Virus record (IMG/VR): IMGVR_UViG_3300014204_000188
Coordinates: 2,002 to 66,001 of that record
DNA length: 64,000 bases
Source: a virus
Taxonomy: Duplodnaviria; Caudoviricetes
Direction: 5' to 3' (one strand)
Below, piece after piece: positions 2,883 through 60,702 of the stretch (positions are counted from its first letter, which is position 1; every line of letters begins with the position of its first letter). The position numbers and the translations under genes were made by a program. The notes below the pieces were generated by a model. The model searched no databases. It was not told where the DNA came from and saw nothing but the letters and a program-made list of their open reading frames with translations.

Positions 2883-3871
2883 AATTATCAGTAATTTATC
2901 TTACGAGACATTGTCCAAGACATTGTAGTTATTGTGCTATTCGAGATACTCTCAAACCACAGGAAGAATTACAAATGCCTGAATGGAAACATGTTTTTCA
3001 AATATTAAAAACTATTAGGATTGATTTTAATCTAATCCTTGGTAATGAACCTTGGTTGCTTGGAGAAAATCTTTTACCTATCTTACATTCTACAGATGTA
3101 CCTTACGCTTTATATACCGCAGGAATTCCTTCGTTGTTTAAGAAATATCATTTATCATTCTTTGGGTATAATCAGATTAAAAACTTTTCAATTGGAATAG
3201 ATTATCCTTTAGGTTTAGATTTAGTGATAAAAGATGATTCCTATACAAAAGCAATGGATGCTTGGGAGGCTTTACAATACGTTCGTAAATTCTATCCATG
3301 GGTAGAAACTCATGCGACAATAACTGTGCATAAACTGAATTATCAGTATCTTCCACAGTTAGTAAGACAACTACAAAATTTGAACATCAACATAAACATT
3401 AATTTCATTCATTGGAATAATGGAGGTGGTTTTGATTTCTTTCCAAGTTTTAAATGTATAAATCGGTTAATGTTTTCAGAAAATGACTATTCAGAACTTC
3501 AGAAAATACTTGATGAAGTTTTACAAAACATAGAATTCATTCAAAATTCACAGATGTTGAAGCTTCCATTTCCAGAATTATTAGGAATGAAATGGCATTG
3601 TCAGGGCAATCCGTATGGTGGTCCAACTGTTGATGCCGATGGTTCTTTACGAGTGTGTGGGTATCGTAAAGGCATTGAGACATCTAAGTTTTCAATTTTT
3701 GATTTACCATCTAAAACAAAAGAATGGGAAGCTGCAGTAAAAGAAGATGCCTCTCATTGTCCAGGGTGTTCTTGGTCCTGTTCATGGATGTATCATTACT
3801 GGGAAAGAAATAATCCTGAACAAGGAAAACAAATCTTTATCAATCATAACAAAGAAAACAAATGTCAATAG
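2879..3871 (+). CDS. radical SAM protein with C-terminal Cys cluster (SPASM/twitch-like)
   Basis: CPRHCSYC (CxxxCxxC), [24 protein letters not shown]. Confidence 0.85.
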
Positions 3872-51432: not shown

Positions 51433-52998
51433 TTAAGCCCTTTCCATCTTATGTAATGGACCAGCCATCCGTTTAGAAGTTAGTTTAGCAAAACAAGCTC
51501 CCGCTGAATCTACCTGATCTTTATACTTACCGAATGGGAAATCCCGATGTTCCGTAATAAAATCTTCATTCCAAGAAGCTTCTAACAATAAAACATTCCC
51601 ATTATTCACTTGTACTGAATATGGATCTGCCCGATAAATCTTATCTCCATGTGGTAAATCTCGTTCCCCAACAAATCCAGCCAGATTCTTTGTAGTAGCT
51701 TCTGCACTTTCTTTACCACCAGAACCAGGCTCCTGTTCATAATATATAGCACATTCTATTCCATCAGCCTCAGCAGTCTCACGAATAATATCTTCCCGTT
51801 CTTCAGCATCCCATCTACCTCGTTTTACATCAGCAACTATCCACTTTCCGTTCTTCAACTTTATCATCTTAGTCCCTACAGTATAACAAGGTCCATTCTT
51901 TGAGTTTAATATCTCTTTTGTACCAGCCTTATCCCAATACCGAGCTACAGACTCCCAATTAATAGAACTTGGTAATGCTTGAATCTTGATAAAATGATCC
52001 ACTTTAAACATCCCACCTGCTGGTGGTGTGGGTGACTGACCCACTTGGCCTGCAAATCCATATTGACCAAGATCAGCCATCAAATCATCTAAGATAGTAC
52101 GGCTTAATCTAACAGGATCCAACAATCCATCTACATAATACTTTTTCAATTCTGCAGGTTCTACCAAATTACCATATCTACCATCCAACAACCCAGGCAA
52201 TACGATACATTTAAGATTTTGTTTATGTTTTTTTCGTTGATGTTCTGTTGGATCATTCACTGCCAACCGTTGCATGATACCAATTACAACAGACACCTCT
52301 TTATCCACCTTCCTGGTAGGCATTGTTTGATCCAGAAAATCATTCGCTGTTTGTAGAGCTGTTATACTCACTGCCTCATGTGGATTGATAATATCATCCC
52401 AAATCAAAATATGTCCATGGAATCCTGTACCCTTCCCATCTATGCCTGTACTAAGCCGAGTACCCCCGTTTAGAATCCTCGGCAAACGGCCTGGGTGTAC
52501 TTGAACTTTCTTGATTATACGGAAGTTCCCTTTAGCATCTTTGTCTTGTTTTATCTCTAATTCCGGATAAATCACTCGAAACCGCTCACTGCGAACAATT
52601 TCCCTACTATACTCCGCAGATTCCCAACTTAAGTCTGCACTATAGCTCCAACAAATAAACTTCATCCAATACCACCGAGTCCAACACCATACTGGAAACA
52701 TAATAGAACATATCGCAGTTTTCGTTGTTCCTGGAGGAATATTAACAATCAAATCATAAGCCTTTGGATCATGTCTTCCTACTCTTTCTGCTATTTCTTG
52801 TAACTCATCACATAAATACTTGATATGCCAATTATCTCGAAATGGTTCCATACTATAATCAGGCCAGAAATATTTTAGAAAATGATAAAAGCTCCTATTG
52901 TTTAACTCTCTCACCAATAACTGTGGATGAGCTATTGCAAATTGAAGCACCTGTTTTTTAGGTGGGTATTTTCTAACTATTTTAGTTTCTGGAAACAT
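51433..52998 (-). CDS. terL: terminase large subunit
   Basis: NIPPGTTKT Walker A, LIWDD, YWDKAGT, EQEPGSGG, DQVDS. Confidence 0.9.
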   Translation of the reverse strand: MFPETKIVRKYPPKKQVLQFAIAHPQLLVRELNNRSFYHFLKYFWPDYSMEPFRDNWHIKYLCDELQEIAERVGRHDPKAYDLIVNIPPGTTKTAICSIMFPVWCWTRWYWMKFICWSYSADLSWESAEYSREIVRSERFRVIYPELEIKQDKDAKGNFRIIKKVQVHPGRLPRILNGGTRLSTGIDGKGTGFHGHILIWDDIINPHEAVSITALQTANDFLDQTMPTRKVDKEVSVVIGIMQRLAVNDPTEHQRKKHKQNLKCIVLPGLLDGRYGNLVEPAELKKYYVDGLLDPVRLSRTILDDLMADLGQYGFAGQVGQSPTPPAGGMFKVDHFIKIQALPSSINWESVARYWDKAGTKEILNSKNGPCYTVGTKMIKLKNGKWIVADVKRGRWDAEEREDIIRETAEADGIECAIYYEQEPGSGGKESAEATTKNLAGFVGERDLPHGDKIYRADPYSVQVNNGNVLLLEASWNEDFITEHRDFPFGKYKDQVDSAGACFAKLTSKRMAGPLHKMERA

Positions 52999-54305: not shown

Positions 54306-54328
54306 TTTAAGTTGTTTGAAATTTTGGA

Positions 54329-54708
54329 AATTTTGAGACGGAAAGAGGAAATCTTCGACAGTCTGGAGTTCTAAAGTGTTTTAACTAACTGATTGAAAGG
54401 GTGTTAAAGTCGAGCCAGATCTCAAAATTGTACCATGAGAAGGCAAATCCGAGTATTAGACCGTTTACGGTTATGCGAATATGTTGATGCCATTTAGTAT
54501 ATGGACAAAGCCTTACGCCAGCAAACCTGGTAGCATTAGAGCGTATCAGTAGGGTGGACATATTATTACGCATAGCAATCGAACTAAATAATACGGTTGG
54601 AAGTTGAAACACAATCCTTTGACTTCTATATATCGCTTGGTAATTTGGGCCAAGCAGTATTGACTACGGCGGACGCTTTCACTTTGGTTCGACTCCAAAG
54701 GTAGCCAC
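54329..54708 (+). ncRNA. large structured non-coding RNA ending in a T-loop tRNA-like domain
   Basis: Multiple long-range helices (e.g. 54329-38/54420-29; 54472-84/54558-74) and TTTGG-TTCGACT-CCAAA arm. Confidence 0.7.
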
Positions 54709-54736
54709 AGTATAAACAATTCTAAAACTTACTGTC

Positions 54737-54931
54737 ATGAACAACACAAGAAGAAAACAAATCAGTGATTTGCTCAGTAAACTGAATGAAATGAAATCAG
54801 AGTTAAAAACTATTCAAAATGATGAACAGAAATACTTTAATAACGTTCCAGAAAACCAACAGGATAGTGTACGTTATTACAATTCAGAATCCATACTAAC
54901 ACAATTGGATGAAGCTTGTTTTTTACTTTGA
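54737..54931 (+). CDS. early hypothetical protein
   Basis: MNNTRRKQI...QNDEQ..FNNVPEN.Q pattern common in phages. Confidence 0.6.
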   Translation: MNNTRRKQISDLLSKLNEMKSELKTIQNDEQKYFNNVPENQQDSVRYYNSESILTQLDEACFLL

Positions 54932-54957
54932 ACATATGATAGAAAATCTCCAGGAAA

Positions 54958-55018
54958 TTATATCATTCCACTGATAAGACTTTAATAGTTGAAACCGGAA
55001 TTTATTCCAGTCTATAAC
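54958..55018 (+). ncRNA. degenerate type I hammerhead ribozyme
   Basis: CTGATAA (G8 to A), stem II GACT/AGTT, GAAAC, stem III with a mismatch, GTC; weak stem I. Confidence 0.5.
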
Positions 55019-55022
55019 ATAT

Positions 55023-55107
55023 GGCTTTGCTCCTCGGGATGATAGCCCCGTGAGAGTCCCGGAACCAGGTTTAGACTTGGATGGTGGTCCGAATCCGCCC
55101 ATTGCCA
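55023..55107 (+). ncRNA. tRNA-like element without D arm
   Basis: Acceptor-like GGCTTTG/CATTGCC+A, T arm GGTGG-TCCGAAT-CCGCC, hairpins CGGGAT/GTCCCG and CCAGGT/ACTTGG. Confidence 0.55.
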
Positions 55108-55131
55108 CTATAAAAACTAAATCTTAATTCA

Positions 55132-55443
55132 ATGAAAACAACATCCACTGAGTTAAACAGCACAGAACTTATTATTCTACAGGCTATTAAACTTGCTCAT
55201 AAAAACGCCGGCGGGGATTTTACTTACGCTGATGAAGTTCTATCAGAAGTAAATCAAATTCTCCTTACAAATCAAACCGCCCAACCCACTCATCTAACTT
55301 ATCCACAAGTTAAAGGATACCTTAGTCAATTATCCCAGAAAGGATATATCTCAATTGACCCCTACGAATTTCATCAAATTAATTTTTGTAAAAAAGCCTT
55401 AGAAATTTATCCAGATTTGGAAAAAACTTGTCAAATTTACTAA
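55132..55443 (+). CDS. winged-helix-like DNA-binding protein
   Basis: LTYPQVKGYLSQLSQKGYISID resembles a wHTH recognition helix and wing. Confidence 0.5.
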   Translation: MKTTSTELNSTELIILQAIKLAHKNAGGDFTYADEVLSEVNQILLTNQTAQPTHLTYPQVKGYLSQLSQKGYISIDPYEFHQINFCKKALEIYPDLEKTCQIY

Positions 55444-55497
55444 GTTACACTGACGAGATTTTATGAATCGAAACCGGAATTCGTTCCGGTCTGTAAC
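55444..55497 (+). ncRNA. type I hammerhead ribozyme
   Basis: GTTACA CTGACGA GATT-ttatg-AATC GAAA CCGGAA-ttcg-TTCCGG TC TGTAAC; predicted cleavage 3' of C55491. Confidence 0.93.
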
Positions 55498-55515
55498 AAA
55501 CTAAATCTTAATATC

Positions 55516-55923
55516 ATGTCAAGTATTAACAAAGAACGGGAAGAATACCGTGAAGATTGTTCCGGTGGAGAAACGACCGGGATGAACAAGACTGATTTAA
55601 AACAAAGTTATTCAAATCATTTGGCTATAAAAGACGTTGATGATGATCCCCGAAAAGAACCCATTCCTAAAGATCAAGACCAAAATCCCAAGGTATCTGA
55701 ATTTCAAAAACTAATTGACCAAGCAATCAAAGCAATCGTGACCTATGAAACCCTGTCTCCTCAGATTGGTTACACTCGAACTTATCAAACAAATGCTATT
55801 CAAGCTGAAAGGTTTATTAGAAGTCTTTCAGTCTATAAATACCATAAAGTTTGGGCCGAAATCCACTCCCACATTGTTTCTTATTACGATAGCCTGGCTC
55901 CTGAACTTAATTCAAAATCTTAA
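55516..55923 (+). CDS. early hypothetical protein
   Basis: ORF with A-rich initiation region. Confidence 0.6.
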   Translation: MSSINKEREEYREDCSGGETTGMNKTDLKQSYSNHLAIKDVDDDPRKEPIPKDQDQNPKVSEFQKLIDQAIKAIVTYETLSPQIGYTRTYQTNAIQAERFIRSLSVYKYHKVWAEIHSHIVSYYDSLAPELNSKS

Positions 55924-56009
55924 AAGTGGAGCTATATATTTTGAAAGTGCTCGATTAATTTGTACTAAACCATAAACGGCTGCCCTATCGGCTACACGGG
56001 GATTGTAAA

Positions 56010-56150
56010 ATGAGATACATTAGACCAAAAAACGAACTTATTGTAAGAGAAAAGAAACTTACAAAGAAGCAGAGAAAAGAAACAGAAGAAAAAGAAGAAT
56101 TTTTGCGTAAAAACCAAAACGGTGTATTTGGTAGTATTTTTTAGAATAAA
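56010..56150 (+). CDS. small charged protein (46 aa)
   Basis: Manually read MRYIRPKNELIVREKK...FGSIFLE*. Confidence 0.5.
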
Positions 56151-56154
56151 ACTA

Positions 56155-56196
56155 ACCCATTTTGGAACTGCCCCGGTTCGATTCCGGAGATGGGTT
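56155..56196 (+). ncRNA. tRNA minihelix-like element (acceptor + T arm)
   Basis: AACCCATT/GATGGGTT stem with CCGG-TTCGATT-CCGG arm; 9-nt linker. Confidence 0.6.
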
Positions 56197-56249
56197 CGAA
56201 CAATAAATTTATCATTTTCAAAAATTAATAATTTTAAATCTTAAACATT

Positions 56250-56549
56250 ATGAACGAAAATTTAGTTTTAAAAATGGATGAAAATCAAGAAACTATTCCC
56301 AGTGTTCTTGGAATTTCTAATGAAAGAGCAAAAGAATTAATAGAATTATGTAGAACGTCTCTCAAAAGTACAGATACTTTTACTGAAAGTATCAAAGAAG
56401 TTTCTGAGAAAACAGAAACGCTTGAGGAATTGGCATTCATTTGTTTTGAACTTGGAATGGTAATCGGTGTTACAAAAGGAATGAGGATAAGCACTAGTCC
56501 GTTAGCTTCATTGGTCCATCAAATGATGCAGGGGGGATCTGAGGAATAA
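56250..56549 (+). CDS. early protein, paralog A
   Basis: Clear similarity to 56644-56892. Confidence 0.7.
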   Translation: MNENLVLKMDENQETIPSVLGISNERAKELIELCRTSLKSTDTFTESIKEVSEKTETLEELAFICFELGMVIGVTKGMRISTSPLASLVHQMMQGGSEE

Positions 56550-56605
56550 GATTTACTGATGAGGCTTCAATAGCCGAAACCCGGAGTGTACTCCGGGTCT
56601 AAATC
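56550..56605 (+). ncRNA. type I hammerhead ribozyme
   Basis: GATTTA CTGATGA GGCT-tcaat-AGCC GAAA CCCGGAG-tgta-CTCCGGG TC TAAATC; predicted cleavage 3' of C56599. Confidence 0.93.
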
Positions 56606-56643
56606 AAAAATTATTTCTTATTTACAAATAAATTTCAAACACC

Positions 56644-56892
56644 ATGGACAAAAATCTAATTTTAAAAACAGACGAAACAAAAGAAAAAATTTCTGAAGTT
56701 CTTGGAATTTCTGATGAAAGAGAACAAAAATTACTTAAAGATGTCGACAAGAGCTTACGGCGAGAAGAAAATATTACTTTAGCTTTAAAAAAAGTAATTG
56801 ATCAAACACAAACTCTGGAAGAAGCTGTTTTTGCCACTTTTCAAATTGGAGCAGAAATTGGATACAATAAAGGTTTTTCTAAATCTTTATGA
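56644..56892 (+). CDS. early protein, paralog B
   Basis: NL.LK.DE..E.I..VLGIS.ER...TLEE..F..F..G..IG..KG shared with 56250. Confidence 0.7.
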   Translation: MDKNLILKTDETKEKISEVLGISDEREQKLLKDVDKSLRREENITLALKKVIDQTQTLEEAVFATFQIGAEIGYNKGFSKSL

Positions 56893-56944
56893 AACTTACT
56901 GACGAGGCTTCAATAGCCGAAACCGGGCTTGCCCGGTCTAAGTT
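56893..56944 (+). ncRNA. type I hammerhead ribozyme
   Basis: AACTTA CTGACGA GGCT-tcaat-AGCC GAAA CCGGG-cttg-CCCGG TC TAAGTT; predicted cleavage 3' of C56938. Confidence 0.93.
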
Positions 56945-58962: not shown

Positions 58963-59052
58963 CGAGAGAATAGTTTAAATCGGTAAAATTAAAAACCAAC
59001 AAATTTTTAGATAGAAGTTCAAATCTTCTTTCTCTCACTAATCATTAATCAC

Positions 59053-60702
59053 ATGATTCCCAAAACTAATAAAACGGTAAACTTACTATCCGGTGAAAAA
59101 TCTCAAATAAAAATTTTATGTCCTTTGGATAAAATAGAAATCACCCGGATTCGAAGTATTACAGGCAGTAAATTCTATTGGAATAATCAACATGGATATT
59201 GGATAACCCCTCTTACTTATAATTCTTTAAAACGGCTTAAATCATGGGGATATATTTTAGATGAACCGTTAAACAATCTTCTAAATAAAAGTAACAAATC
59301 ACTTCCATCAAAACTAAACCATGATATTTACATTCCAGGGTTAAAACATGAACTACGCCCATTTCAAAAGATAGCAGTGAATTTTCTCGAATATACTGAT
59401 GGAAACGCCCTCATTGCTGATGAAATGGGACTTGGGAAAACGATTGAAGCCATTGCCTATCTACAATTACATCCTGAACTAAAACCAGTCATAATTGTAT
59501 GCCCAGGATCACTAAAAGAAAACTGGAAACAAGAAATACTAAAATGGATGACTTTTCCAAAAGTTAGAATACTAAACGGACAAACCCCAACGAAAACTCT
59601 AATAGGAAATATATTTATTATCAATTATGATATTATACATTCCTGGAGAAAAATACTAAAAAAACTAAATGCTCAGATACTTATTGCCGACGAATGTCAT
59701 TTTTTCAAAAACAATAGTGCTGATCGTACTCAAACAATCAAACGCTTAACAAAAACAATCCCACATATCATTGGATTATCTGGTACACCAATAGAAAACA
59801 GACCTTTAGATATCTTCAATATTGCTAATATTCTTGATCCTATTACTTTTCCAGATAGAGTACAATTCTGCGTACGTTACTGTGATAGAAAGTATAGTAA
59901 ATTAGGATGGGATGATAGTGGAGCTTCTAATACTATTGAACTTCATGAGAAGCTAATCAATTCTATTATGATCCGACGAAAGAAAAAAGATGTATTGCCA
60001 GAACTTCCTGATAAAACATATTCATATGTACCAATTGAACTCGATAATAAAAAAGAGTATCAAGAAGCACAAATGGATTTTATCAACTTTGTTGAAAAAA
60101 ATAAAGGTGCCATTGCTGCGGAAAAAGCATTACGAGCACAAGCATTAACCAAAATAGAAACCTTAAAACAACTTGCAATCAAAGGTAAATTTAAACATGC
60201 CATAAACTGGATTAAAGAATTTTTAGAAGTAGAAAATAAACTGGTAATCATATGTATTCACACAGAAATAATTACCGGAATAATATCTGCCTTCCCTGAT
60301 ATTTCTGTGAAAATAGATGGTTCAATTGCCACGAACAAAAGACAATCCATCGTACACAAATTTCAAACTGATCCATCTATCAAACTTTGTATTATCAACG
60401 TAGAAGCTGGTGGTGTTGGGATTACCTTAACTGCAGCGTATAACGTGGCTGTACTTGAATTACCTTGGAATCCTGGAAAACTAACTCAAGCCATTGATAG
60501 AATACACAGAATTGGTCAACTTAAAGGAGTGTTAGTTCATTTCCTTCTGGCAGTAAATACTATTGAACAACGATTAGCATGGATATTAGATAGAAAAACA
60601 AAAATAAGTAATGAAATACTTAACGGGGAACCATTAGAAAAAGAAGTATTACTAACCGAATTAATACAATCATATACTACTCAAACATTATGGAAAACTT
60701 AA
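59053..60702 (+). CDS. SNF2/SWI2-family helicase (HARP-like)
   Basis: LIADEMGLGKT, IADECH, LSGTPIEN, GGVGITLT, QAIDRIHRIGQ. Confidence 0.92.
   Translation: MIPKTNKTVNLLSGEKSQIKILCPLDKIEITRIRSITGSKFYWNNQHGYWITPLTYNSLKRLKSWGYILDEPLNNLLNKSNKSLPSKLNHDIYIPGLKHELRPFQKIAVNFLEYTDGNALIADEMGLGKTIEAIAYLQLHPELKPVIIVCPGSLKENWKQEILKWMTFPKVRILNGQTPTKTLIGNIFIINYDIIHSWRKILKKLNAQILIADECHFFKNNSADRTQTIKRLTKTIPHIIGLSGTPIENRPLDIFNIANILDPITFPDRVQFCVRYCDRKYSKLGWDDSGASNTIELHEKLINSIMIRRKKKDVLPELPDKTYSYVPIELDNKKEYQEAQMDFINFVEKNKGAIAAEKALRAQALTKIETLKQLAIKGKFKHAINWIKEFLEVENKLVIICIHTEIITGIISAFPDISVKIDGSIATNKRQSIVHKFQTDPSIKLCIINVEAGGVGITLTAAYNVAVLELPWNPGKLTQAIDRIHRIGQLKGVLVHFLLAVNTIEQRLAWILDRKTKISNEILNGEPLEKEVLLTELIQSYTTQTLWKT

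Follow-up and report, generated by a model that had tools for sequence, protein, structure and literature searches.

Hammerhead-type ribozymes and tRNA-like RNAs at the gene boundaries of a small-ORF run in a metagenomic phage

Results

RNA elements occupy six of the seven gaps in a run of small phage genes

The Caudoviricetes record IMGVR_UViG_3300014204_000188 of IMG/VR is a complete 66,001-bp virus record with direct terminal repeats, and its bases 2002-66001 make up the 64,000-nt window analysed here. From ~54.3 kb, the + strand of the window carries a run of open reading frames (ORFs) of 64, 103, 135, 44, 99, 82 and 63 aa, followed by tightly packed ORFs, a tRNA gene and a helicase gene at 59053. 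The boundaries of these small genes hold a structured leader RNA, type I hammerhead ribozymes, a tRNA-like element (TLE) and tRNA minihelices, all of them on the + strand within 54.3-57.0 kb. A first-pass annotation, made from the letters of the sequence, had placed an RNA element in six of the seven intergenic gaps and had left the gap at 55924-56009 unresolved; the tally was correct, and that gap gave no fold signal. The features are as follows.

54318-54712, + strand: structured leader RNA, ~390 nt with an approximate 5′ end, just downstream of the divergent AT-rich promoter region
54661-54707, + strand: leader 3′ minihelix, 47 nt, acceptor UGACUAC/GUAGCCA with 6/7 pairs
54737-54931, + strand: ORF1, 64 aa, phrog_4068 (E = 2e-15), function unknown
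54964-55018, + strand: decayed type I hammerhead, would-be cut after 55012
55023-55107, + strand: TLE, 85 nt, acceptor GGCUUUG/CAUUGCC with 5/7 pairs and two U.U
55132-55443, + strand: ORF2, 103 aa, function unknown
55444-55497, + strand: HH1, type I hammerhead, predicted cut after C55491, RF03152 25.3 bits (below the gathering score)
55516-55923, + strand: ORF3, 135 aa, function unknown
55924-56009, + strand: gap without a recognised element, fold z = +0.49, its 3′ part being the ORF4 leader
56010-56144, + strand: ORF4, 44 aa, Lys/Glu-rich, with diverged copies in other metagenome contigs
56154-56196, + strand: tRNA minihelix, 43 nt, acceptor AACCCAU/AUGGGUU with 7/7 pairs
56250-56549, + strand: ORF5, 99 aa, paralogue of ORF6 (44% identity, E = 4e-22)
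56550-56605, + strand: HH2, type I hammerhead, predicted cut after C56599, RF03152 32.7 bits (E = 0.0067)
56644-56892, + strand: ORF6, 82 aa
56893-56944, + strand: HH3, type I hammerhead, predicted cut after C56938, RF03152 27.2 bits
56967-57158, + strand: ORF7, 63 aa, phrog_10201
58964-59037, + strand: true tRNA gene, Rfam tRNA 52 bits, 57 nt past a stop codon, with the helicase ATG 15 nt further on

Pfam and PHROGs searches assigned no function to the small ORFs, and a scan of the + strand between 54.3 and 57.5 kb found no terminator-like sites. For comparison, ~120 loci were fetched, which are designated by L numbers where they need to be told apart. Homologues with covariation or conserved architecture were found elsewhere for all four element types, and in syntenic relatives, where the first-pass annotation had proposed to look for conservation, the elements were kept at the corresponding boundaries. 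These results supported that all the elements are genuine conserved RNA structures at the gene boundaries of a co-oriented, terminator-free run of small ORFs.

Three gaps contain intact type I hammerheads that directly follow stop codons

HH1, HH2 and HH3 contain every hammerhead core base, in the order CUGA(C/U)GAG ... CGAAAC ... GUC, and each of them shows the type I core, namely C3-U4-G5-A6-N7-G8-A9 and G12-A13-A14, an A15.1-U16.1 pair and a cut after a non-G H17. Three helices with stem I open were also found: the minimum free energy (MFE) folds of HH1 and HH3 gave stems I of 6 bp, II of 4-5 bp and III of 6-7 bp, and the MFE fold of HH2 showed stems II and III, its 6-bp stem I being seen by direct pairing. 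The pattern CTGANGA...GAAAC had four matches from three elements against 0.63 expected, all on the + strand within 1.5 kb, and the complete 66-kb genome had just three occurrences of the hammerhead pattern, each on the + strand, and none of the control pattern. Re-analysis returned the cleavage positions that had been predicted at first, 55491, 56599 and 56938. Judged by these sequences, HH1-HH3 would be expected to self-cleave in this phage.

The exact core and stem II (CTGAYGAGGCTTCAATAGCCGAAAC) were present in 38 IMG/VR contigs, many of which hold two to four hammerheads within 0.3-2 kb. In an alignment of 35 phage copies, compensatory changes were detected in 6/6 stem I pairs and 3/4 stem II pairs; stem III, which MAFFT aligned poorly, forms in all copies with differing sequences. 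As the first-pass annotation had stated, HH1, HH2 and HH3 begin at the first base past the upstream stop codons, which end at 55443, 56549 and 56892, and they end 18, 38 and 22 nt before the next ATG, respectively. Among 39 phage hammerheads of this subtype with an upstream ORF, 27 start ≤3 nt from the stop codon (median 0), and in several the stop codon lies inside stem I; the next ORF begins ≤30 nt past the ribozyme end in 30 of 37 (median 19). ORF5 and ORF6 being paralogous at 44% identity, ORF5-HH2 and ORF6-HH3 therefore constitute a duplicated gene-plus-ribozyme unit. Locus L099 has a hammerhead syntenic with HH3, flanked by an ORF5-like gene upstream and an ORF7-like gene downstream.

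A hammerhead of the same subtype was also observed in the cultured Pelagibacter phage HTVC019P (L124, NC_020483), at 2948-3009 on the + strand in an unannotated gap of the early region, with the sequence GCAAAA-CUGACGAG-GCUUUAAUAGCC-GAAA...GUA-UUUUGC. A second hammerhead is possible near 994 of this genome (~989-1060, +), and the hammerhead core is common to six other Pelagibacter phage records, in the podophage early region. The occurrence of the subtype in the early region of cultured Pelagibacter phages makes experiments feasible.

tRNA minihelices lie in the same type of slot

The minihelix at 56154-56196 consists of the perfectly paired acceptor, a 10-nt linker UUUGGAACUG, a 6-bp T stem CCCCGG/CCGGAG with one C.A mismatch and the loop UUCGAUU, and is followed by C but no CCA. 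The earlier proposal of a minihelix in this gap proved genuine, except that it starts at 56154, 9 nt past the TAG at 56142-56144, and not 5 nt after the stop codon. A strict minihelix scan of the fetched loci together with the window (~1 Mb) gave 12 matches against one in the reversed-sequence control. Seven of the 12 belong to one family, with members in the window, L107, L019 (two), L035 and L038 (two), which share traits beyond the demands of the scan: AAC.../...GUU acceptor ends, a linker starting NU-UGGWRC, the loop UUCGAUU (UUCGAAU in one) and C-U after the acceptor. All members are located 0-10 nt past a stop codon, and the next ATG mostly follows after ~20-25 nt. In L019, L035 and L038, a hammerhead is present on the same strand and in the same run of small ORFs as the minihelix, and as these loci were fetched by the hammerhead motif alone, this co-occurrence was not selected for. 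In the minihelix alignment (A6) MAFFT shifted one member, and the pair counts in this study cover the hammerhead, TLE and leader alignments.

ARAGORN and the Rfam tRNA model found nothing at 55023-55107, 56154-56196 or 54661-54707, and the TLE and both minihelices lack the anticodon arm, a 5-bp stem with a 7-nt loop, of the canonical tRNA cloverleaf. All three carry a T arm with a UUCRANY loop on a 7-bp acceptor, which has 7/7 pairs in the minihelix, 6/7 at the leader 3′ end and 5/7 in the TLE. The acceptor/T-arm helix that makes up the minimal RNase P/Z substrate, flanked by single-stranded RNA as 5′ leader and 3′ trailer, is present, but it carries a linker bulge of 10-14 nt. Most minihelices have U at -1, which would fit a cut by RNase P, and none of them encodes CCA. 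Cleavage by RNase Z would agree with this lack of CCA and with the conserved C-U that follows the acceptor.

Several other small tRNA-like RNAs were noted in the comparison loci. The 59-kb and 165-kb phage contigs L104 (310-345, +) and L108 (1330-1365, +) carry another mini tRNA mimic, GGAAC-ACC-[CCGG UUCGAUU CCGG]-GCA-GUUCC followed by an encoded ACCA, and in L108 a second T-loop hairpin lies ~15 nt further on. On the 44-kb phage contig L106 (- strand, 1640-1760), a tRNA-like element that ARAGORN did not call has the acceptor ACCCCAA/UUGGGGU, a CCGG-UUCGAUU-CCGG T arm, an internal 6-bp hairpin with a 13-nt loop and UGGAAC, with another T-arm-like hairpin upstream. A conserved GC-rich stretch (CUCUGCUCACGCAGGCUCGUAAAUGCAACGAGGGGAGGGG...) follows three of the minihelices, at 3404-3470 and 4469-4540 of L019 (+) and 4169-4240 of L038 (-), and is more suggestive of an additional structured RNA than of a short leader.

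A decayed hammerhead and a covarying TLE separate ORF1 from ORF2

The reading of this gap as a degenerate hammerhead plus a tRNA-like element was borne out, the hammerhead by homology to HH1 and to the intact hammerhead of L087 in a full-length alignment (A7), and the TLE by covariation. The hammerhead at 54964-55018 has CUGAUAAG (G8->A), a stem I with 3/6 pairs and one stem III mismatch, and no Rfam match was obtained for it at E ≤ 10. The decayed copy in L048/L074/L099 also aligned, that of L074 having G12->A and stem mismatches, and the copies of the window and L074 are independent decays of one ancestral ribozyme. The spacing from hammerhead to TLE is 4 nt in all three lineages, of which L087 retains an intact hammerhead. 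In L087 the intact hammerhead and TLE come next after a homologue of ORF1, and in L048/L099 the decayed hammerhead and TLE come next after a homologue of ORF2.

Within the TLE, an 8-bp hairpin A with the invariant 10-nt loop GAUGAUAGCC is followed by a YCNGGAAC linker, a variable hairpin B without an anticodon loop, and the T arm GGUGG-UCCGAAU-CCGCC (5-bp stem, 7-nt loop), then A73 and C74. We proposed a consensus structure and then tested it on an alignment (A3) of 11 distinct members gathered with a two-conserved-block pattern in IMG/VR and metagenomes. In this alignment 85.7% of cells pair and 13 of 26 pairs change on both sides; none of 500 shuffles reached the observed value, and slid controls gave 1-6 pairs. 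The T arm is 100% paired across the family. The acceptor 5′ strand GGCUUUG never varies and its partner strand does, 7/7 pairs being formed in L065 and L083, and the whole invariant 5′ strand reads AUGGCUUUGCUC. At the anticodon position the family has a variable hairpin with a tetraloop or no arm. The full CCA is encoded after the TLE in L063 and L083 (...GCC-A-CCA), 10 of 11 TLEs have U at -1, and the TLE is always intergenic between co-oriented ORFs, usually 13-37 nt ahead of an ATG. Neither ARAGORN nor Rfam recognised these TLEs, that of the window included; the covariance model R1 found the latter as the single TLE in the window (102 bits) and gave a weak match to the leader minihelix (14.2 bits, E = 0.05).

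The covariation bears on whether the tRNA-like pieces might be debris, such as decayed phage tRNAs, attachment-site remnants or mobile-cassette passengers, with function confined to the hammerheads. The phage does have other odd tRNA-like sequences, namely the RNA at 14635-14830 and the tRNA with an aberrant anticodon loop, both described below; metagenome contigs start matching the window at 56153, beside the minihelix start at 56154, suggesting module shuffling; and the hammerhead adjacent to the TLE is decaying. However, compensatory changes keep all the TLE helices and the minihelix stems across distant phages, both acceptor strands are present although an attachment-site remnant would not need them, and the spacing to stop and start codons is constant. 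The debris explanation was already disfavoured because of the covariation, and we hold it to be very improbable.

With R1, distant tRNA-like elements (22-36 bits, not called by ARAGORN) were also observed in four hammerhead-bearing contigs, at L034:7767-7909 (-), L029:4455-4597 (+), L028:199-283 (-) and L038:12277-12368 (-), two of them with a 50-60-nt insertion. The element lies ~2 kb downstream of a same-strand hammerhead in L034, L029 and L028, and ~2.9 kb upstream in L038. The TLE pattern had 14 matches in prokaryote genomes, which were chance matches: R1 confirmed none of them, its sole match (L116) lay away from the pattern match, and this search gave no clue to the host.

The run begins with a conserved leader RNA ending in a minihelix

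The leader RNA has no credible ORF and an MFE z of -2.0. The first-pass annotation had described it as an ornate RNA ending in a T-loop domain, and this was upheld by a conserved fold with a 47-nt minihelix at its 3′ end, in which a 14-nt linker with GGAC, a 6-bp T stem and the loop UUCGACU follow the acceptor 5′ strand. Homologues have ~87% identity in L074/L046 and 78% in L087. The RNAalifold consensus contains 117 pairs, 97% paired, 17 of them with compensatory changes, as derived from and tested on the same three sequences; slid alignments gave 0-2 compensatory pairs, and 0 of 500 shuffles reached the observed value. The single A.C mismatch of the window's minihelix is a proper pair in L087, where the acceptor is perfect (UGACUAC/GUAGUCA). 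In IMG/VR the core motif of the leader was found in this clade only, and no Rfam match was obtained at E ≤ 10, even with only the 426 nt searched. An identity as tmRNA, RNase P RNA, ROOL or GOLLD received no support, as ARAGORN called no tmRNA and Rfam gave no match. Short stretches of the leader (UUCGAC, GGACG and UGAAAGGGUG) may resemble parts of tmRNA or RNase P RNA, which we did not count as a test.

Translation starts downstream of the elements are A-rich

Start regions in the window are G-poor and A-rich, and a loosely defined Shine-Dalgarno (SD)-like 4-mer precedes only 9 of 73 ORFs of ≥100 aa, so the earlier suggestion of an SD-independent host is a fair reading. An A-rich initiation motif had also been claimed after most elements. 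The sequence AAATCTTAA occurs seven times in the window, four of these within 55.1-56.3 kb, and it is also found in the leaders of the relatives L048/L087/L099. The copies at 55119, 55503 and 56236 lie 5-6 nt ahead of the ATGs of ORF2, ORF3 and ORF5, which agrees with the claim, but the fourth local copy, at 55915, is the end of ORF3 with no start codon after it, and the window-wide count is only marginally above chance (≥7 copies were reached in 6 of 100 shuffles).

A message that may be cut at its gene boundaries

The above results supported that hammerheads and tRNA-like minihelices fill the same slot, in the order stop codon, element, ~20-nt leader and ATG, in several unrelated phage contigs. 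A true tRNA stands in an equivalent slot of the window, 15 nt before the helicase gene. The observations of the first-pass annotation were confirmed, and its interpretation, that the phage cuts its early polycistron into single-gene units by two chemistries, was partly supported. The terms 'early' and 'single polycistron' are inferences from layout.

On this interpretation, the small genes on the + strand from ~54.3 kb would be read as one multi-gene message. A type I hammerhead at each of three boundaries would fold during synthesis and cut itself after GUC, and nearly the whole ribozyme, with a 2′,3′-cyclic phosphate, would stay as the structured 3′ end of the upstream gene's RNA; since a type I hammerhead remains on the upstream fragment, the upstream cistron would end folded and the downstream gene would start with a 5′-OH and an A-rich leader of 24-44 nt. 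Elsewhere the slot would be taken by the TLE (85 nt), one of the two minihelices (that of 43 nt and that at the leader 3′ end) or, further on, the true tRNA; the acceptor/T-arm shape of all of these could be recognised by host tRNA-trimming enzymes, RNase P on the 5′ side and RNase Z or RNase E on the 3′ side. Three steps of this account are inferred: transcription of the run as one RNA, cutting by the hammerheads of this phage, and cleavage by the host at the tRNA mimics and at the in-line tRNA. Taken together, it is somewhat probable that the + strand message from ~54.3 kb falls apart at gene boundaries through hammerheads and host-cut tRNA mimics.

Several observations weigh against this processing account. 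HH1-HH3 do not reach the Rfam gathering scores (RF03152, 25.3-32.7 vs 56.3 bits; RF00008, 17.8 vs 48.5). RF03152 (RAGATH-1) is the best Rfam match for all three, as the Rfam check of the gaps proposed earlier showed, with the TLE and the leader matching no family; like them, RAGATH-1 and the type I family (RF00163) have a core CUGAUGAG-ACUU...CGAAAC and a GUC cut site. The RF03152 scores fall short because the extra 5′ hairpin of RAGATH-1 is absent here, and because all core bases are present we read the sub-threshold scores as a limit of the model. The 10-nt linker bulge of the minihelix is absent from the classical model substrate. The hammerhead beside the TLE has decayed in two lineages, the window and L048/L099, and cutting by it is therefore dispensable there. 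Finally, orthologous slots in the ~120 loci showed no exchange of hammerhead for minihelix, only of an element for a plain hairpin or nothing: when the ORFs that precede elements were compared by blastp with all ORFs of these loci, 12 hammerhead-hammerhead, 2 minihelix-minihelix, 25 hammerhead-none, 7 minihelix-none and 0 hammerhead-minihelix pairs were found.

In addition, the stop codon overlaps the first bases of the acceptor in 3 of the 7 members of the minihelix family, where a 5′ cut by RNase P would clip the stop codon, so that a cut on the 3′ side or no cut is favoured. This overlap speaks for another explanation, in which the elements, instead of being cut by host tRNA enzymes, would cap 3′ ends and insulate translation: a stable fold after the stop codon would shield the upstream cistron from 3′ exonucleases and uncouple the next one, the hammerhead by cutting itself and the minihelix and TLE as folds or after a 3′ cut by RNase E/Z. 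Such capping would also agree with the type I hammerhead leaving nearly all of itself on the upstream RNA, and with the plain GC-rich hairpin, or nothing, that follows orthologues of the element-bearing genes elsewhere. However, a plain hairpin would suffice as a cap, whereas the kept T loop, 7-bp acceptor and GG-containing linker point to recognition as tRNA, and a true tRNA in line with the genes needs excision anyway. We judge capping without cutting by tRNA enzymes to be improbable.

The TLE itself raises a further objection, as its invariant 5′ strand and GAUGAUAGCC loop exceed the needs of a processing signal, and in some phages it follows a terminator-like hairpin (L063, L083, L095) or a promoter-like AT-rich stretch (L089, L100, L102), like an independent gene. 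With invariant blocks beyond what a cleavage signal needs, the TLE may be a functional small RNA, also or instead. Carried further, the TLE and the leader above all would be small RNAs with a job of their own, such as that of a decoy or sponge, for a tRNA-binding enzyme of the host or a defence nuclease directed at tRNA, or of a CCA-tailed effector; the hammerhead and RNases would only release them, and message cutting would be a side effect. This would account for the conservation of the 5′ strand, the loop and the YCNGGAAC linker across phages sharing nothing else, for the CCA encoded in L063 and L083 and for a leader RNA far bigger than a cleavage signal requires, and in L087 the intact hammerhead 4 nt upstream would define the 5′ end of the TLE, as do the theta ribozymes flanking phage tRNAs (PMC10879173). 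On the other side, the 43-nt minihelices have nearly no conserved sequence outside the tRNA top half and sit in hammerhead-type slots, an ORF always closely follows the TLE, and no partner protein or target is known. We consider such a primary small-RNA role unlikely, though it deserves more weight than capping.

Among public sequencing runs on record as RNA, none holds the stretch. A wastewater run labelled RNA-Seq, a label that is a guess, contains a 416-nt contig identical to 54595-55009, which runs uncut through the leader minihelix and ends 3 nt before the would-be cut site of the decayed hammerhead; as RNA ends cannot be read from contigs and DNA may be present in the run, no conclusion was drawn from it.

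Relation to known systems of transcript processing

In mitochondria, tRNAs located between ORFs and excised by RNase P and RNase Z punctuate the polycistronic transcript, as reportedly described by Ojala et al. in 1981. The phage arrangement resembles this punctuation in having tRNA shapes between reading frames with scant spacer, and the overlap of the stop codon with the acceptor in some members recalls the incomplete stop codons of animal mitochondria; it differs in that the phage elements, which are predicted cut sites, are mostly no functional tRNAs for lack of an anticodon arm, are mixed with self-cleaving ribozymes and belong to a bacterial virus. In phage T7, the early polycistronic mRNA is cut between cistrons at structured sites by host RNase III. 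That message too has dedicated structured sites between cistrons, but these are double-stranded RNA hairpins, cut by host RNase III with another chemistry.

Clustered hammerheads that flank single genes in prophages have been reported, and processing to single-gene mRNAs was proposed for them (Perreault et al. 2011, PMC3088659); they cleave ~2-kb native transcripts in vitro and, in one case, in E. coli (PMC3088659). As here, those clusters group several hammerheads within 1-2 kb, and the small phage genes that they separate vary in identity. The tested examples came from Clostridium, Azorhizobium and Agrobacterium prophages, and in contrast to the present locus the paper has no tRNA-like elements in equivalent slots and no strict abutment to stop codons. 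The hammerhead part is thus a further case of a described arrangement. The first-pass annotation was not aware of a description of the mixed arrangement, and for its tRNA-mimic half none was found in the literature: searches returned no account of tRNA mimics lacking an anticodon that lie at gene boundaries of phages, nor one of the TLE or the leader RNA.

Hairpins of acceptor stem and T arm are efficient model substrates of RNase P (McClain, Guerrier-Takada and Altman 1987, reviewed in PMC11143913), which also processes phage RNAs and operon mRNAs (PMC11143913). The minihelices share with these substrates the 7-bp acceptor, T stem, T loop and single-stranded leader, and mostly U at -1, but in them 10-14 nt of linker separate the 5′ strand of the acceptor from the T stem, and a 3′ CCA is lacking. 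The nearest precedent for the L087-type pair of hammerhead and TLE is provided by theta (HDV-like) ribozymes, which adjoin tRNAs in gut phages and were proposed to trim them (Kienbeck et al. 2024, PMC10879173). In both, a self-cleaving ribozyme abuts a tRNA-shaped RNA in a phage; theta ribozymes, however, are of another class and lie downstream of real suppressor tRNAs, whereas here a hammerhead lies upstream of an anticodon-less mimic. The guide-RNA arrays with hammerheads known as VIPR (bioRxiv 10.64898/2026.04.26.720920) were considered and rejected, as neither strand of the window has a run of ≥3 GGYNN units.

More broadly, phages of several lineages might use two interchangeable punctuations, hammerheads and anticodon-less tRNA mimics cut by host RNase P/Z, while the TLE with its GAUGAUAGCC loop and the leader of 390 nt would each stand for a new family of phage RNAs acting in trans, e.g. 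as decoys for tRNA-binding host factors; this combined proposal is tentative, although we find it quite possible. If true, the two-punctuation reading would be a viral counterpart of mitochondrial tRNA punctuation. The role of bacterial and phage hammerheads has been a question since their discovery in 2011, and the strict positional rule of stop codon, ribozyme, ~20 nt and start codon, together with tRNA shapes in the same slots, offers a specific and testable hypothesis of mRNA processing. The slot sharing suggests that, to the same end, phages make use of the universal tRNA-trimming enzymes of the host. The TLE, the minihelix and the leader RNA were defined as three RNA families without an Rfam entry. 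For engineering, natural separators made of ribozymes and tRNA mimics would be ready-made insulators for multi-gene constructs.

Genomic neighbourhood and further tRNA-like sequences

The window has a GC content of ~32%. Its genes at 24-54 kb lie on the - strand, ending with the large terminase (51433-52998). Nearly the whole stretch was found in one run only, a landfill metagenome that is its probable source, and relatives occur in groundwater runs. At the DNA level, neither the 3-kb region nor the TLE was matched in GenBank phages. Sigma-70 promoters were not supported, the scan scoring no better than shuffles, and a reading of the conserved upstream stretch as a Bacteroidota-type -33/-7 promoter was set aside, as the usual spacing was not matched by eye.

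In the gap without a recognised element, a small pseudoknot is possible at 55978-56005 (GGCUG..CGGCU with CCC..GGG). The segment 55968-56214, comprising ORF4, its leader and the minihelix, resembles a mosaic module: several metagenome contigs from three runs begin or end their likeness to the window at 55968, 56078, 56153 and 56204-56214, with a depth 3-4x that of the flanks.

The anticodon arm of the tRNA at 58964-59037 scores poorly, and ARAGORN gives it a 4-base 'anticodon' aaca, which corresponds to an 8-nt loop, with no U33; this tRNA could be a frameshift-type or otherwise unusual decoder. Far from the small-ORF run, a ~196-nt tRNA-like RNA without a match in Rfam, ARAGORN or GenBank phages lies at 14635-14830 (+), in the gap preceding an ORF at 14847. 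It is composed of an acceptor AGGAUGC/GCAUCCU, a D-arm-like GCG...CGC, a T arm CCGGG-UUCGAAU-CCCGG and ~110 extra nt at the place of the anticodon arm (fold z = -2.2), and may be an intron-bearing or expanded tRNA mimic.

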